From the NCBI GenBank assembly GCA_019058445.1, contig JAHPZA010000003.1, forward strand, positions 160,001 to 224,000: a stretch of 64,000 bases of DNA, in the 5' to 3' direction. Origin of the DNA: Promethearchaeota archaeon (GTDB lineage Archaea > Asgardarchaeota > Lokiarchaeia > Sigyniarchaeales > SOKP01). A program made the position numbers and the translations under genes. The stretch's first letter is position 1. Each line of letters begins with the position of its first letter. Of the stretch, positions 3,118-9,287 are shown one piece after another. Below the pieces are notes generated by a model. The model was not told where the DNA came from. It ran no database searches and saw only the letters and a list, made by a program, of their open reading frames with translations.

Positions 3118-5523
3118 ATGAATAAGAAAACCGTTGAAATTAATATATCTGGCATCGTCCAAGGAGTAGGATTCCGACCTTATTTATTTAATTTAGCAAG
3201 AAATTTTGGACTTAAAGGATTTATTCTAAATCGTGGAAATGCTGGAGTTAGGCTTGTAGTTCAAGGTGATAATGAAAGAATCAATAGATTTATTGAGAAT
3301 ATTGAGAAAAAAAGCCCAAAAATCTCATATATTGAAAGTTTAGAAACTAAAGAACTACTCACAGAGGAGATATTTAGTGAATTAAATATTAAGAAAAGTG
3401 AAAAGGGGAGGGGTATAAGTTTGACACTCCCTCCGGATATAGCAATTTGCGATGATTGTTTAAAGGATATGAGAGATTCAAAACTAGCCAAATATTATAT
3501 GTATCCCTTTATTGCATGTGCAGTATGTGGTCCGCGATATACAACCGTTAAAGAGTTACCCTATGATAGGGAGAGATCCACTATGATTCAGTTCCCTTTC
3601 TGTAGAAACGCTAATCCAAGTTCATGTATTCAAGAATATTCCGACTTTAGCAACAGACGATTCCATGCCCAAACTTTTGCCTGTTCAGTATGCGGTCCAA
3701 ATTATTCACTTTATAATAAATCTAGAGACATCATTGAAAAGGATTCTATTAAAGAGATTTTAAAGTTATCCGCAAAAAGAATAAAGAAAGGTGAGGTTGC
3801 TGCCGTGAAGGGAATTGGTGGAGTTCATTTAGTTTGCTTAGCTGATAATGATGATATCATTCTTAAATTAAGAAAAAGAAAAGGTGAAAGAAAGTATAAA
3901 CCATTTGCGTTAATGGTTCCAAATTTAGATTTAGTTGAAGATTTTTTAAAAATATCTCAAAAAGAAAGAGAGTTATTGACTTCTTTTAGGCGCCCTATTG
4001 TTTTGTTAGAAAAAAAGAATGATGAAACAAAAGGATTTATTAGCAAGCAGGTAGCTCCGGGCTTAAATAACATCGGCGTAATGCTACCATATTCAGGAAT
4101 TCATTATTTGCTTTTCGATTTTATAGGAGAAAAACCATTAGTCTACACCAGTGGGAATAAATCAAATATACCTATGGGTATAGAAAATGATACAATTTTT
4201 GATCAACTTGAGCATCTTGCCGATTTTTTCCTCCTCCACAACAGAACAATACATCAAAGAGCAGATGATAGTGTCGTAAGGATTCACGATAATAAAGTAA
4301 AACTAATTAGAAGATCAAGGGGCTATGTTCCCGAATATATACCGTTACCGTTTAATGTTGATGTTTCTGCCGCTCTTGCAACAGGACCTGAACTATCTAC
4401 GACAGGAGCCGTGCTGAGGAGAAACCGAATATTTCCCACTCAGCATATAGGTAATGTAACGCATCTGGAAACCTATGATTTTTTAAAAAATGCCTTGTTT
4501 CATATGAAGAATCTACTACAGATTAAGGATTCTGAAGTAGAATTTATTACCTGCGATGCCCATCCAACACTTATAACCAGCAAGTTTGCCCAAGAACTTT
4601 CAATGAAGTATAATATCCCTTTCTACCCTGTTCAACATCATTTCGCGCATGCATTAGGATTAATGGCTGATAATAAGGTAGAAATAGAGGAAAGTATTGT
4701 TGCGATTAGTACCGATGGAGTAGGTTACGGTGATGATGGGAATGTATGGGGTGGTGAAATATTATTATGTTCATATAAAGGATACAAACGTTTTGGGCAC
4801 TTAGAATATCAACCCATGATTGGAGGGGATCGATGTACGAAATATCCCGCTAGGATGGCGGCCTCAATCATACTTAAAAATCTTGGAATAGAAGATTCCC
4901 TCAGATTATTCGAACAAATTGAATTATCAAGGGACCTAGAGTATGGACAAAATGAATTACAAACTTTAATTTCTCAATATGAAACAAGTAATAATCGCTA
5001 TCTAGATGGAAATATTCCGTTATCCAGTTCTACTGGTAGAATTTTTGATACTGTTTCTTATCTCTTAGGGGCGTCAAACATAAAGACATATCGAGGGGAA
5101 CCTGCTATGCGGCTTGAAGGATTGGCTGCAAATGGAAATCCTGATAAGATTAAATTAGATATAAAATGTAAAAAAAAAAATAATACTTTTGTCATCAATA
5201 CATCAGATCTAATATTAGATATTTTACGTTTAAAAAAAAACCCATGCATAAAACCTGAAGACATTGGTGCTAGCTTTCATAAAGCCCTTGCTAATTCTTT
5301 TGCGGAAATTGCAATCATAATAGCTCAAGAGAATCATATTAAAAATGTTGGCCTTACCGGGGGCGTTGCATTTAACTATTTTTTTTCGCGTTCTATAAAG
5401 GAGAAAATAACTAAAGAAGGTTTACTCTTTTTAGAACACAATAAAGTTTCACCTGGAGATGCTGGAATAAGTACAGGGCAATTAATCGGTGGTCTATTTA
5501 AACATAATCTAGAGAATTCATGA
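3118..5523 (+). CDS. hypF: Carbamoyltransferase HypF
   Basis: Acylphosphatase GIVQGVGFRP, zinc fingers CDDC/CAVCGPRY, YrdC KGIGG, QHHFAH, DGVGYG, PGDAGIS. Confidence 0.97.
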   Translation: MNKKTVEINISGIVQGVGFRPYLFNLARNFGLKGFILNRGNAGVRLVVQGDNERINRFIENIEKKSPKISYIESLETKELLTEEIFSELNIKKSEKGRGISLTLPPDIAICDDCLKDMRDSKLAKYYMYPFIACAVCGPRYTTVKELPYDRERSTMIQFPFCRNANPSSCIQEYSDFSNRRFHAQTFACSVCGPNYSLYNKSRDIIEKDSIKEILKLSAKRIKKGEVAAVKGIGGVHLVCLADNDDIILKLRKRKGERKYKPFALMVPNLDLVEDFLKISQKERELLTSFRRPIVLLEKKNDETKGFISKQVAPGLNNIGVMLPYSGIHYLLFDFIGEKPLVYTSGNKSNIPMGIENDTIFDQLEHLADFFLLHNRTIHQRADDSVVRIHDNKVKLIRRSRGYVPEYIPLPFNVDVSAALATGPELSTTGAVLRRNRIFPTQHIGNVTHLETYDFLKNALFHMKNLLQIKDSEVEFITCDAHPTLITSKFAQELSMKYNIPFYPVQHHFAHALGLMADNKVEIEESIVAISTDGVGYGDDGNVWGGEILLCSYKGYKRFGHLEYQPMIGGDRCTKYPARMAASIILKNLGIEDSLRLFEQIELSRDLEYGQNELQTLISQYETSNNRYLDGNIPLSSSTGRIFDTVSYLLGASNIKTYRGEPAMRLEGLAANGNPDKIKLDIKCKKKNNTFVINTSDLILDILRLKKNPCIKPEDIGASFHKALANSFAEIAIIIAQENHIKNVGLTGGVAFNYFFSRSIKEKITKEGLLFLEHNKVSPGDAGISTGQLIGGLFKHNLENS

Positions 5524-5650: not shown

Positions 5651-7330
5651 ATGACTGAAGATTTCCAATTCATTTATAAAGAAGAGTTTTGGTATATTAG
5701 TGCGTTCTTGAATACGGTGCTCGTTGATAGCATTGCAAAAAGTGCTGAAATTGAAATCCTCATAAAAAATGAATTTAGTAAATTAAAACCAGAAGATATT
5801 TTTCGCCAAGATTTAAAAGATGATATCATCGGTATGGTAAACAATATATCTCTTAATTGCAAATGGGTCCCGTTTTTGAAAAGTTTTCCCTATAAGGATG
5901 AAAATTCTGAGAGAGAGTTTAACACCTTAGGCTATTTTCAGTTTGAAGTTGAGTATTACAAAAATGATCAAGCAAAAAAAGAAGCTTTAAATCCCTTATT
6001 AATCCAACAAGTCCCTTATATCGTTTTAAATATTTTAAGAGAATATGGTAAAAGACCTGAAAATAAAGGAGTTTACTTTGATACTGAGAGTCCTATATAT
6101 GTATTTGCGACGTCTAATAAGACAAAACCTACTGAAATCCAATGGACCAGAGAAAATGTTGAAAAATATAAAAAGACCATAGCCTATTGGACGGTTATCT
6201 ATTCTGGTCAATGGCCTGATTATTCAGAGAAGTTATATGATCAACGGATTCAAAACAATCTTTCCAATCGTCTTTCTGAATTGCATTTTATTTACCGTAA
6301 TTCGGGATTTATTTACATGGCAGAAGAAAATTATGAGAGATTCTTTGAATCTTACATGAAACAATTTGTGCTTGAACCCACTCCTAAAATGCGAGCAGTT
6401 CTTTTCGTGTTAAGATCAATAAACGAGTCTCTGGATTTATTATTCTTAAAAACTTACTCGGGTACTTTTACAAATATGAAGACGATTGAAGATAAAATTA
6501 AAAATCTCAGATTTCTAAGAGGACTAGTCCAAACGCAATTAAGTTTAATATATAATGAATTAGATTATAATAGGAGACAACACTATACCAGTGTCTTGAA
6601 GCATTTGATTAGTCAATTCGATCTAAATGATGTAGTGAATAGAGTGAATGAGAAATTTAATTTGATATATGGAGCTATGCAGGAGCTATATCTCAAAAAG
6701 AGTGAAGAAGACGCACAAAGAACCGAAAGAAGATTAAACCTTCTAAACTTACTCTTTGGCGCAGGTATTTTAGCAGATTTAGCTGGTGTGATTATGATTG
6801 CGTTTAGTTTACAAGAAAGTGATTCACCCGCAGTATTGCTCCATATTTCTATATTCATCATTATATTAGGAATTTTAGTCCTTACCATTGGATATTACAT
6901 CTATTCAAAGATAAAGATCATAGAAACTGAAGTCGGAAAAACGGTGGATGCTGTAATAGAGGATGATAGGGGCAATGTGGTTTTGATTAAGCGCAAGTAC
7001 CCTCCTTTCAAAGATTATTATGCCCTTCCCGGAGGGTTTATAGAAAAAGGTGAAACACCAAAACAGGCGGTTATAAGGGAAGTAAAGGAAGAAACCAATC
7101 TTACCATTGAAATACTTAAAAAAATTGGTATCTTTGATGAAGAAGGACGAGATCCCCGCGGTAAAATAATTTCTACCGCGTTTAAATGCCGTATAATTGG
7201 CGACACTTCCCAAATGCAAAGTGGTACCGATTCAGCGAGTGTTGAACTTATCCCTAAGGAAAAAATAGCTACACTCGATCTAGCTTTTGATCACAGAGAT
7301 ATTTTAAAGGATGCAGATATTATTGAATAA
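5651..7330 (+). CDS. Membrane protein: CorA/RMD1(DUF155)-like soluble domain + 2 TM helices + C-terminal Nudix hydrolase
   Basis: Long helical region leading into two hydrophobic helices (~aa 362-420), then intact Nudix box GGFIEKGETPKQAVIREVKEETNL with RDPRG and LAFDH motifs of ADP-ribose pyrophosphatase-like enzymes. The N-terminal fold is inferred. Confidence 0.75.
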   Translation: MTEDFQFIYKEEFWYISAFLNTVLVDSIAKSAEIEILIKNEFSKLKPEDIFRQDLKDDIIGMVNNISLNCKWVPFLKSFPYKDENSEREFNTLGYFQFEVEYYKNDQAKKEALNPLLIQQVPYIVLNILREYGKRPENKGVYFDTESPIYVFATSNKTKPTEIQWTRENVEKYKKTIAYWTVIYSGQWPDYSEKLYDQRIQNNLSNRLSELHFIYRNSGFIYMAEENYERFFESYMKQFVLEPTPKMRAVLFVLRSINESLDLLFLKTYSGTFTNMKTIEDKIKNLRFLRGLVQTQLSLIYNELDYNRRQHYTSVLKHLISQFDLNDVVNRVNEKFNLIYGAMQELYLKKSEEDAQRTERRLNLLNLLFGAGILADLAGVIMIAFSLQESDSPAVLLHISIFIIILGILVLTIGYYIYSKIKIIETEVGKTVDAVIEDDRGNVVLIKRKYPPFKDYYALPGGFIEKGETPKQAVIREVKEETNLTIEILKKIGIFDEEGRDPRGKIISTAFKCRIIGDTSQMQSGTDSASVELIPKEKIATLDLAFDHRDILKDADIIE

Positions 7331-7355
7331 ATTTGTTTTTCTTTTTTTTTTTTCA
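7331..7355 (+). terminator. Poly-T archaeal terminator
   Basis: Long T tract directly after the stop codon. Confidence 0.55.
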
Positions 7356-7476: not shown

Positions 7477-8787
7477 ATGAGTCAAAATATGGCATCTAAT
7501 CTTGATGAGATATATAAATCCATTGTAAATGATTCTAAAGATAAAACGGGTATTGTCTGCTTAAATTGCTTATTTAAATACATCACAATTGAAGATTTAC
7601 AAGATTTTGCTAAAGAACATGAAATTCACATTGTTAAAAAAAGTGAGATGAGAAAGCTTGATTATTTTAAATATATATGTCACGCTTTTTATAATGATTA
7701 TCAGAGTAATTCTCAAACTCAAGCACTCTATTCTAATTGTCTAACTTATATAGGTGAAATGTTATTTAGAAATGAGAAATTTTTTGACATCTTTAAGATG
7801 CACGATTTTCTAAGTAAACAAGAAATCATTGAAGTCTTTGCAGATTGGTGTGCTGATCTTGGCATTTCTGTGTTTAATACCTCAGAAATCTCTGAATATT
7901 CATTAGATCTATATTTTACGAAGAGAAAACCTAGACTGAGAACTGAAGCTGTTTTTTTAAGAACTGGAGAAGAAATGGATGAAAAGAATTATGAGAAAAC
8001 ATTAGAATTCATTAAAAATTCTAAGAAGATATCTGCATGGACTGTCTTTGTGACAACGCCATTAGGAGCATTTAATATAGGGCTTTATAAATTAATTGGC
8101 GATATGGAGAGATTAAACACATGGCTATATATAGTTGATCCTTTAAAAATGAGAATTTTTGGAATTATTCGGGGCAAAAAATCTAAAGATCATGATCAAG
8201 ATTTAAGAGATGAATATATCAAGAAATTACCTCGTGAACCAATTAGAGCTCCTTCCCAAGTCATTAAGTTTTCGAAATATGACTTAAATGATGCAGAAAG
8301 GTATAAACCTTCAAACTTTACAATATTTGAACTTATAAGCGAAAGGGAACATGAAGAATTGATTAAAATACCACTAAAAGATCCAAGATATAAAAAAATC
8401 TTTAGAAACCTTCTAATTATAGAAGAAAATTCAGGAATCTCAGTTTTCTCATATTCCAGCGAAATTGTTACGATGGATGATAATTTAATTTCAGGATTTT
8501 TGAGTGCAATTGATCATTTTATGTCAGAAGTAGGAGGCTCCTCATCTTTAAAGGAAATAGATTATAAAGGTTTCTTTGTACAAGCGGCATACGGTGAATT
8601 TGTAAAAATGGCTGTTTTCCTTTCCGAACCTGGGGATCAAATATTAAAAGAGCGTCTTTCTTATTTTATTAAACAATTTGAGGAAAAATATAAGGAACAA
8701 ATAGAAGAATTTAAGTTAACTGGGAATGTTTCAGTCTTTACTAATAAAGAGATAAAATTTCTTGCTCAAGAAATCTTAGAAATTTAG
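7477..8787 (+). CDS. Hypothetical protein with C-terminal longin domain
   Basis: C-terminal ~125 aa LLIIEENSGISVF...LISGFLSAIDHFMSEV...KEIDY...FEEKY follows the Asgard longin pattern; N-terminal CxxC. Confidence 0.7.
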   Translation: MSQNMASNLDEIYKSIVNDSKDKTGIVCLNCLFKYITIEDLQDFAKEHEIHIVKKSEMRKLDYFKYICHAFYNDYQSNSQTQALYSNCLTYIGEMLFRNEKFFDIFKMHDFLSKQEIIEVFADWCADLGISVFNTSEISEYSLDLYFTKRKPRLRTEAVFLRTGEEMDEKNYEKTLEFIKNSKKISAWTVFVTTPLGAFNIGLYKLIGDMERLNTWLYIVDPLKMRIFGIIRGKKSKDHDQDLRDEYIKKLPREPIRAPSQVIKFSKYDLNDAERYKPSNFTIFELISEREHEELIKIPLKDPRYKKIFRNLLIIEENSGISVFSYSSEIVTMDDNLISGFLSAIDHFMSEVGGSSSLKEIDYKGFFVQAAYGEFVKMAVFLSEPGDQILKERLSYFIKQFEEKYKEQIEEFKLTGNVSVFTNKEIKFLAQEILEI

Positions 8788-8807: not shown

Positions 8808-9287
8808 TCAAGAGATCGGATGTTTTTCTTTAAAAATTAACTCGATAATTAACTCATCTCTGGATTTGGTTATATAATCTTCCAATTCATGAAATATATT
8901 AATATTTCCATCCCATTTGATTAGCTCTTCTTTTGGATATCTCTGGAAAAATAAGGTTATAACGTGGTCTAATAGTCTCAAGACTTTTTTATGTTTAATC
9001 CTTCTAGAAGAACTTGCTAAAAAAATGAAATTATTTCTTTTAATTAAATCGAACCGGAGGTTACTAAATTCTAAACAATTCAGCTGTTCATGAGTTAATT
9101 CTTGCGTAAAAGAAGTTAATGCACTTATAAGCATACCAAAAACTTGTTCTTCAATTTGCGGATTACTAACTTTACTGGCAACCACTTTTCCACTGTCCGT
9201 TATTATCAATATGTCCTGCAGCGTATCGAACATGATTGTTCTTCCAAACCTAAAGGTCTCTCTATCGAAAAAAATACTTCCAAACAC
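8808..9287 (-). CDS. Standalone longin-domain protein (likely start ATG ~9233, MFDTLQD)
   Basis: ILIITDSGKVV...FGMLISALTSFTQEL...F-F-x-RY...WDGN pattern. Confidence 0.75.
   Translation of the reverse strand: MFGSIFFDRETFRFGRTIMFDTLQDILIITDSGKVVASKVSNPQIEEQVFGMLISALTSFTQELTHEQLNCLEFSNLRFDLIKRNNFIFLASSSRRIKHKKVLRLLDHVITLFFQRYPKEELIKWDGNINIFHELEDYITKSRDELIIELIFKEKHPIS

Follow-up and report, generated by a model that had tools for sequence, protein, structure and literature searches.

A CorA-shaped membrane protein of Asgard archaea fused to an ADP-ribose-type Nudix domain, a candidate nucleotide-regulated channel-enzyme

The window analysed here is a stretch of 64,000 nucleotides from a Promethearchaeota archaeon (assembly GCA_019058445.1, contig JAHPZA010000003.1, positions 160,001 to 224,000 of the forward strand). 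It contains an open reading frame (ORF) of 559 amino acids (aa) in which a membrane protein with the shape of a CorA channel is followed by a Nudix hydrolase domain (Table 1). A preliminary description of this DNA, made from the sequence alone, had listed a soluble part of about 360 aa ending in a long helix, two transmembrane (TM) helices and a complete Nudix box accompanied by RDPRG and LAFDH motifs. All of these elements are found by ORF analysis, hydropathy and Pfam search, and the peptides it quoted are present in the translation. The start codon is correct, as alignments with homologues begin at residue 1, and GGGGT is located 10–14 nucleotides ahead of it. The gene has a GC content of about 30%, the same as the surrounding genome, and is the only copy of its family in this genome. 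We found no paper that describes this Asgard CorA-shaped/Nudix family. Its members are publicly annotated as 'NUDIX hydrolase', '8-oxo-dGTP diphosphatase' or 'hypothetical', and no Pfam model covers the family. We conclude that the family is new at the level of sequence and follows a known scheme, in which a membrane module of the CorA type is combined with an enzyme that degrades nucleotides.

Kyte–Doolittle windows place the two hydrophobic helices at about aa 362–388 and 390–421. Lysine and arginine residues are distributed around this hairpin with five ahead of TM1, none within the five-residue loop and three past TM2. By this distribution, both soluble parts should be cytoplasmic (N-in/C-in), which agrees with the orientation given in the preliminary description. 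With a shallow alignment, AlphaFold2 (AF2) modelled the helical part and the N-terminal domain poorly, and the full-length Foldseek search was dominated by Nudix matches. Remodelling of aa 1–428 from 52 diverse sequences resolved the poor N-domain model and gave a predicted local distance difference test (pLDDT) value of 88.6 and a predicted template modelling score (pTM) of 0.80. In this model, an alpha/beta subdomain (aa 1–160) is formed by strands 6–20, 66–76, 92–102 and 141–159, which pack against helices 27–64 and 107–134. It is followed by a helix/beta-hairpin segment that holds the conserved block and by three to four long antiparallel helices between this block and the stalk. A 60-residue helix (325–386) is stalk and TM1 in one, and the TM2 helix spans residues 393–425. 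A four-copy model of aa 180–428 scored 0.19 against a mark of 0.42, which speaks neither for nor against oligomerisation.

Table 1. Features of the CorA-shaped/Nudix gene and its 3' end, in positions of the window.
Feature	Residues	Position	Strand	Remarks
Whole gene	1–559	5651..7330	+	single uninterrupted ORF, ATG start; CorA-shaped cytoplasmic domain, stalk, two TM helices, Nudix domain
N-terminal alpha/beta subdomain	1–160	5651..6130	+	AF2 pLDDT 86–98
Most conserved block	161–240	6131..6370	+	mean identity 57% over 52 diverse members
Antiparallel long-helix bundle and cytoplasmic portion of the stalk	241–358	6371..6724	+	
TM1	362–388	6734..6814	+	continuous with stalk; N366, G370, D/E376; no GMN
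TM2	390–421	6818..6913	+	preceded by acidic outer loop of 4–8 residues
Nudix domain	430–554	6938..7312	+	Pfam NUDIX, E 6e-20, 72 bits against a cutoff of 21.1
Nudix box GGFIEKGETPKQAVIREVKEETN	462–484	7034..7102	+	catalytic E477, E480 and E481 present
RDPRG motif	500–504	7148..7162	+	invariant in 30 homologues; also in 3i9x and 2yyh
LAFDH motif	544–548	7280..7294	+	invariant in 30 homologues; also in 3i9x, 2yyh and 2fml
Oligo-T tract (likely archaeal terminator)		7332..7353	+	immediately 3' of the stop codon; read from the sequence

The N-domain belongs to no Pfam or NCBIfam family, NUDIX being the only Pfam domain in the 559-aa protein, and a sequence search with the N-domain against the PDB matched no chain. 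Its affinities come from the predicted structure. Foldseek with the aa 1–428 model against the PDB gave no match below E 1e-3. The top match, like many others, is a CorA (8tme_A, E 9e-3, probability 0.96), the cytosolic domain of E. coli CorA is matched with a probability of 0.99, and over the full length the strongest matches are CorA-superfamily channels (CorA/Mrs2/ZntB/CmaX). In full-length structural alignments, aa 1–160 are matched to the CorA cytoplasmic domain. A real resemblance is favoured by three points: all branches of the CorA superfamily appear among the matches, the alignments span the TM hairpin in addition to both the alpha/beta part and the helical part, and the linear layout is identical. 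A CorA-like fold of aa 1–428 is probable at these moderate scores. Family and superfamily share the order of their parts, from a cytoplasmic alpha/beta domain through antiparallel long helices to a stalk that runs into TM1, a short loop and TM2, which closes the conserved module. Family members that lack the Nudix domain stop right after TM2, as CorA does. The Asgard family differs from CorA in that it shows no sequence similarity and no GMN or GxN, its conservation sits in the cytoplasmic domain instead of TM1, and its cytoplasmic domain is larger by about 100 aa. To our knowledge, a C-terminal Nudix domain is unknown in the CorA superfamily.

The preliminary description had assigned the layout to the CorA/RMD1 type. 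Its architectural part stands, together with a predicted fold like that of CorA, while a sequence match to either CorA or DUF155 was not obtained. For DUF155/RMD1 (PF02582) there was no match to the 559-aa protein at E ≤ 0.1 or to 52 family members at E ≤ 5. DUF155/RMD1 was also not found in the window's genome or in 151 Asgard genomes, a result that is uninformative because the control genomes were empty as well.

The Nudix domain is joined to TM2 by a linker of about eight residues. Its box, G462-x5-E468-x7-R476-E477-x2-E480-E481, is invariant in 30 close homologues and intact wherever it could be located in archaeal members. The sole departure from the Nudix consensus GX5EX7REUXEEXGU is N483, which replaces the last G. 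The best NCBIfam matches are NadM-Nudix and the ADP-ribose (ADPR)-responsive repressor named NtrR by NCBIfam; they fall under the cutoffs of these full-length models, as expected for a single domain. Among PDB chains, the domain matches by sequence 3i9x (2e-20), 2yyh (1e-19), 2fml (EF2700, an NrtR; 2e-14), NadM (1e-10) and the NrtR 3gz8 (7e-10), with RDPRG and LAFDH aligned. By Foldseek it is superimposed on 2yyh with a TM-score of 0.82 and a root-mean-square deviation of 1.9 Å over 130 aa, and further structural matches are 3gz8 (NrtR with ADPR) and 2qjo/2qjt (NadM). Judged by its closest relatives in sequence and structure, the domain is a member of the ADP-ribose pyrophosphatase/NrtR/NadM-Nudix subgroup (COG1051). 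In this subgroup, an intact box accompanies ADPR hydrolysis and a degraded box accompanies pure ADPR sensing, and NrtR senses ADPR through a Nudix domain of this type (PMC2330246). Since members of the subgroup with an intact box hydrolyse ADPR, family resemblance makes ADPR or a close derivative the most likely substrate of the fused domain. NrtR and NadM-Nudix share the subgroup and both motifs with the Asgard protein, and they are a precedent for a Nudix domain that is fused to an output module and acts as ADPR sensor, hydrolase or both (PMC2330246). Their output module is a winged-helix DNA-binding domain or a nicotinamide mononucleotide adenylyltransferase, whereas here it is a membrane protein.

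The window's genome also encodes a soluble Nudix paralogue of 141 aa, which is 52% identical to the fused domain and shares the N483-type deviation in its box. This paralogue (contig 6, L049:1474-1899) has RDPRG and (F)AFDH motifs, sits downstream of two tandem metallophosphoesterase-like genes and adjoins two small-GTPase-like genes with Cys-rich C-terminal tails. The fused Nudix domain is thus not the only enzyme of its type in the cell, which argues for a local, specialised role.

The preliminary description had raised the possibility that the fusion is confined to this assembly. This is not the case. Among 5.8 billion proteins searched, more than 120 clusters match at 62–100% identity; nearly all have a length of 556–580 aa and a Nudix domain, and their source assemblies are independent and bear the names Lokiarchaeota, Promethearchaeota, Hermodarchaeota or Thorarchaeota. 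The family is present in 145 of 400 genomes of the phylum; for the taxonomic family of the window, the figure is 90 of 134. A chimera or assembly artefact is rejected, as the same architecture recurs in hundreds of independent assemblies. Against orthologues of the same genus, the nonsynonymous divergence (dN) is 0.07–0.37, with synonymous divergence (dS) saturated in every module even inside the genus, so the whole protein is under purifying selection, a conclusion that is qualitative only. The distribution is patchy at the genus level, with three of nine genomes positive in the window's genus and none of four in another genus whose genomes are 89–100% complete. With one genome per species (185,579 species), 106 loci were found, and all but three of the 80 listed carry the name of an Asgard or unclassified archaeon. 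The three exceptions (L066, L122, L123) lie in metagenome-assembled genomes labelled Nanopelagicaceae, Woesearchaeota and Deferrimicrobium, with 50–65% identity to the query, and are probably mis-binned Asgard contigs. Apart from one protist protein, the family is found almost only in Asgard archaea.

A HMMER profile of the N-domain retrieved only 101 proteins from 1.84 billion representative sequences. These fall into two size classes, of 540–615 aa with a Nudix domain and of 380–480 aa without. In the midpoint-rooted N-domain tree, the proteins that carry a Nudix domain fall into a single clade, which has 27 members plus three entries that are truncated or were secondarily shortened, and two Nudix-less clades lie outside it; named Nudix-less members include Heimdallarchaeota. 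Because the Nudix-less forms stop just past TM2 and lack a Nudix gene in a range of about 8 kb, the ancestral unit consists of N-domain, stalk and two TM helices. We conclude that the Nudix domain is a later addition, gained essentially once, in the Lokiarchaeial clade, and retained. No other enzyme was seen fused to the N-domain among 40 diverse members. A few genomes hold two diverged full-length paralogues of about 560 and 580 aa, and these are adjacent on opposite strands in at least two genomes (G249:C47:17901-21460 and G230:C168:480-4173). In one relative (L022, G241:C77), an in-frame TAA splits the gene into ORFs of 324 and 236 aa, possibly through recent inactivation or an error of sequencing.

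Conservation is distributed unevenly along the protein. Compared with the protein of the window, the 52 diverse members have a mean identity of 34% in aa 1–160 and 40% in the helical bundle, with the maximum in the block of aa 161–240. Residues kept in at least 85% of the sequences are W165, K174, W180, Y184, S185, G186, D190, Y191, R199, N203, L204, S205, R207, S209, E210, H212, N217, S218, F220, Y235, D262, N307, H311 and K335. They include the motifs YSG (184–186) and NLSxR (203–207) of the block, which we regard as a putative ligand or regulatory site. A few polar positions are also retained in TM1, namely N366 in 43 of 49 sequences, G370 in 39 and D/E376 in 34. An acidic residue is found inside TM1 positions 372–381 in 45 of the 49.

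The gene is flanked by gaps of 127 bp upstream, which is AT-rich, and 146 bp downstream. With the oligo-T tract after its stop codon, it looks like a transcription unit of its own. The upstream neighbour is hypF (3118..5523, +). Directly downstream lies a convergent pair, 7477-8787 (+) and 8808-9287 (-). The former encodes a protein of 436 aa without Pfam family, and the 159-aa product of the latter matches the first longin domain of FUZ/MON1/HPS1 (E 2.5e-6). Both are eukaryote-like proteins of the trafficking type, as is typical for Asgard genomes.

The surroundings of the gene, about 18 kb at each locus, were compared for 20 relatives of at least nine genera and for the window. In two related genera of the window's taxonomic family, paralogue A is linked to nadA, the gene of quinolinate synthase. 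Among seven such loci (L023, L024, L025, L030, L031, L032 and L018), nadA is adjacent in five and one or two genes off in two, and wherever it is adjacent it stands head-to-head with the family gene. A hexapeptide-repeat (gamma-carbonic-anhydrase-like) gene is usually next on the same strand, and ThiF, Roadblock/LC7, LSm and HgdB-like genes follow further along. This synteny is stable and of a housekeeping type, with a faint flavour of nicotinamide adenine dinucleotide (NAD) metabolism. The linkage to nadA is absent from the window and 11 other lineages. A family-wide operon partner is therefore rejected, since the linkage to nadA and the hexapeptide transferase is limited to two related genera.

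From this material we propose a ligand-regulated, oligomeric CorA-like pore with a built-in hydrolase of the ADP-ribose type. The proposal is put forward tentatively, at somewhat less than even odds. Its direct basis is the gene itself, its topology, the Nudix box and subfamily, the conservation of the fusion, the purifying selection and the predicted CorA-like fold at moderate scores; the oligomer, the pore, the ion, the ligand and the coupling we infer. The family would comprise Asgard-specific inner-membrane proteins with the architecture of the CorA/Mrs2/ZntB channel superfamily. The protein would assemble into a CorA-like oligomer, probably a pentamer, in which TM1 with N366, G370 and D/E376 would line a cation-permeable pore, and aa 161–240 would form the ligand-binding or regulatory site that controls opening. 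Fused after TM2 in the Lokiarchaeial clade, the Nudix domain would sit at the inner face of the membrane beside the stalks, where it could hydrolyse ADP-ribose or a related NAD-derived nucleotide locally. Such hydrolysis would end or tune the signal that acts on the channel and yield a self-resetting channel.

Two known systems make a mechanism of this kind plausible. In type III CRISPR systems, CorA effectors obligately occur with a partner enzyme that degrades their signal, S-adenosylmethionine-AMP (SAM-AMP), and some are fused to this enzyme; the authors suggested that this degradation prevents desensitisation or resets the system (PMC10600005). Conserved residues of these effectors cluster at a proposed signal-binding site in the cytoplasmic domain (PMC10600005). 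The Asgard family resembles the CRISPR CorA proteins, which occur with NrN/DEDD phosphodiesterase or SAM-AMP lyase (Chi et al. 2023, PMC10600005), in being a divergent CorA-type protein with a cytoplasmic conserved cluster that is coupled to a nucleotide-degrading enzyme, by fusion in some species. It differs from them in several respects: it has no CRISPR or defence context, it is restricted to Asgard archaea at stable chromosomal positions, its fused enzyme is a C-terminal Nudix domain and not a DHH or DEDD phosphodiesterase, and the likely nucleotide is of the ADP-ribose type and not SAM-AMP. In early-branching and invertebrate TRPM2, ADPR gates the channel from a separate N-terminal site, and the Nudix domain at the C-terminus is active and hydrolyses ADPR (PMC4917252, PMC6461439). 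Like TRPM2, the Asgard protein, if it is a channel, would be a cation channel that ends in a cytosolic Nudix domain of the ADPR-hydrolase type (PMC6461439, PMC4917252, bioRxiv 10.1101/2023.03.16.533055). The likeness is one of logic only. TRPM2 is a six-TM tetrameric TRP channel with a Nudix domain of the NUDT9 type, and no TRPM2 or NUDT9 chain is among the PDB sequence matches at E ≤ 1e-5. The relation is analogous and not homologous, as the preliminary description had put it.

Several observations weigh against the proposed channel-enzyme. No CorA (PF01544) match was obtained for the 559-aa protein at E ≤ 0.1 or for 52 family members at E ≤ 5, and the family profile, aligned by hhalign with ten Asgard CorA sequences, gave a probability of 2.2% and nothing significant. 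Neither GMN, whose absence had been noted before, nor any other G-x-N tripeptide occurs anywhere in the 559 aa; the outer loop has the consensus SLQE(S/G)x and varies across the family, whereas the Asgard CorA controls all have YGMNF. Membership in the CorA family proper is rejected on both grounds, sequence and GMN. The profile and structure comparison proposed for the N-domain in the preliminary description thus gave CorA matches at moderate Foldseek scores and none by hhalign. Its suggestion of a nucleotide-regulated channel-enzyme keeps the support of the architecture, the intact ADPR-type Nudix domain and the predicted fold, and lacks that of CorA sequence homology and GMN. The TM hairpin is the least conserved region, with a mean identity of 29%. 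In true CorA channels, the opposite is found, TM1 and GMN being the most conserved parts, so the hairpin of the Asgard family may be a mere anchor. The Nudix-less relatives have no Nudix gene nearby, which indicates that the N-domain works without Nudix. Substrate preference in the Nudix superfamily is not reliably assignable from sequence. Nudix domains of the COG1051-type subgroup are normally domain-swapped dimers, which fits a pentamer poorly (PMC2330246). Finally, no neighbour is conserved family-wide in the 20 relatives and the window, and none points to a pathway.

The main rival, favoured by the weak conservation of the hairpin, has no pore. In this reading, the two TM helices would serve as a tether only, the N-domain would be a catalytic or binding unit, and the Nudix domain would act at the membrane on the product or substrate of the N-domain, such as a compound derived from NAD or ADPR. 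Block 161–240, the most conserved part of the protein, is rich in invariant D, E, H, R, K, S and N, in the manner of a catalytic or ligand-binding site; no channel family shows sequence homology to the protein, and the head-to-head arrangement with nadA in two genera would suit such an enzyme. However, the best whole-length structural matches are channels of the CorA superfamily, a simple anchor needs no long stalk helix that runs into TM1, the polar residues N366 and D/E376 are retained within TM1, and the nadA linkage does not extend beyond closely related genera, being missing from the window and 11 other lineages. A membrane-anchored enzyme or sensor is credible but rather unlikely. The same fold and the conserved acidic residue in TM1 could also belong to a divergent metal channel of the CorA superfamily for Mg2+, Co2+, Zn2+ or Ca2+, in which the GMN filter is replaced and the Nudix domain is an accessory that uses the same divalent cation. 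Canonical CorA (PF01544) was not found in the window's genome, which is 92.6% complete, and in one relative (L021, G261:C17) a 574-aa paralogue lies between two same-strand P-type IIA (Ca2+-type) cation ATPases of about 950 aa each. But ATPase neighbours occur at only one of 21 loci, the outer loop contains no conserved selectivity motif, and canonical CorA is found in 275 of the 400 Asgard genomes, often together with the Asgard CorA-shaped/Nudix family, so that the two are not complementary. The window's genome also has MgtE-domain genes, two adjacent ORFs of about 186 aa on contig 5 (L050, L051). A functional replacement of canonical CorA is rejected on this wide co-occurrence and on the presence of MgtE, and we consider a metal channel very improbable.

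The precedent of CorA effectors fused to signal-degrading enzymes (PMC10600005) makes an abortive-infection or defence effector worth weighing, in analogy to CRISPR CorA-NrN. An ADPR-derived immune signal, made by enzymes of the TIR or SIR2 type, would open a pore that disrupts the membrane, with the Nudix domain as the means of resetting it. The patchy occurrence within genera and the premature stop codon in one relative would be in line with this, and the Nudix domain matches PDC-S07, the Nudix of a PADLOC candidate system. The neighbourhood argues otherwise: no cas, TIR, SIR2 or other defence (PADLOC) family recurs among 63 neighbours in 11 lineages, the window has no cas or other defence family, and the nadA, ThiF, LSm and Roadblock synteny is stable over two genera. 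Sequence conservation across the more than 120 clusters, with identities of 62–89%, is also unusually high for a defence gene, and the GC content does not deviate from that of the surrounding genome. We regard a role in defence as quite improbable. The ligand-regulated CorA-like pore with its own hydrolase remains the reading that we propose, with the reservations given above.

The only non-archaeal family member is P0135 (849 aa), whose complete ORF was found in the transcriptome of a marine protist (MMETSP). A version of 956 aa that is nearly identical (P0224; L047:175-3045) is located on a 7.8-kb contig of the Joint Genome Institute (JGI), with a GC content of 47–51%, next to a gene of the Pho88 family, which is eukaryotic. 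The 7.8-kb record bears three ORFs on the same strand, which is odd for a single eukaryotic mRNA. The protist protein has the full layout of N-domain, two TM helices and Nudix domain, with low-complexity extensions, one at the N-terminus and one a long Ser/Gly/Pro-rich tail, and its Nudix box is degenerate (KRSIMEDLG, with RE changed to RS and EE to ED). It groups with P0127 at a Shimodaira–Hasegawa-like approximate likelihood ratio (SH-aLRT) support of 97. Because it nests inside the archaeal Nudix-bearing clade, a transfer from an Asgard archaeon appears to fit better than contamination. No further eukaryotic homologues were returned by the N-domain profile search, and a word-based search with the protist protein returned only itself. 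A bolder extension of the proposal would describe an archaeal 'chanzyme', a CorA-fold pore that is gated by ADPR or a related NAD-derived nucleotide at the conserved cytoplasmic site, reset by its own C-terminal ADPR hydrolase and evolved independently of TRP channels; its gene would have reached at least one eukaryote, where the decayed box possibly became a pure sensor. The Nudix box of vertebrate TRPM2 is decayed as well, and the decay in the protist would then mirror the course of the TRPM2 NUDT9-H domain from invertebrates to vertebrates. We consider this extended version doubtful, and clearly unlikely in its entirety.

If the proposed reading is true, the Asgard protein would be the first nucleotide-regulated channel-enzyme described in archaea. 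It would constitute a second, independent invention of the logic of TRPM2, that is, of an ADPR-type Nudix domain on a cation channel, and it would extend the type III CRISPR principle of a CorA effector with a signal-degrading enzyme to a non-defence, apparently housekeeping setting. This setting is provided by the closest prokaryotic relatives of eukaryotes. The sharply conserved cytoplasmic motif of the family invites a search for its ligand, and tests of the family are feasible in those Lokiarchaeia with the gene that are in culture or have closed genomes. If the pore reading is wrong, the family would still mark a conserved membrane-associated function linked to NAD and ADPR turnover in Asgard archaea.

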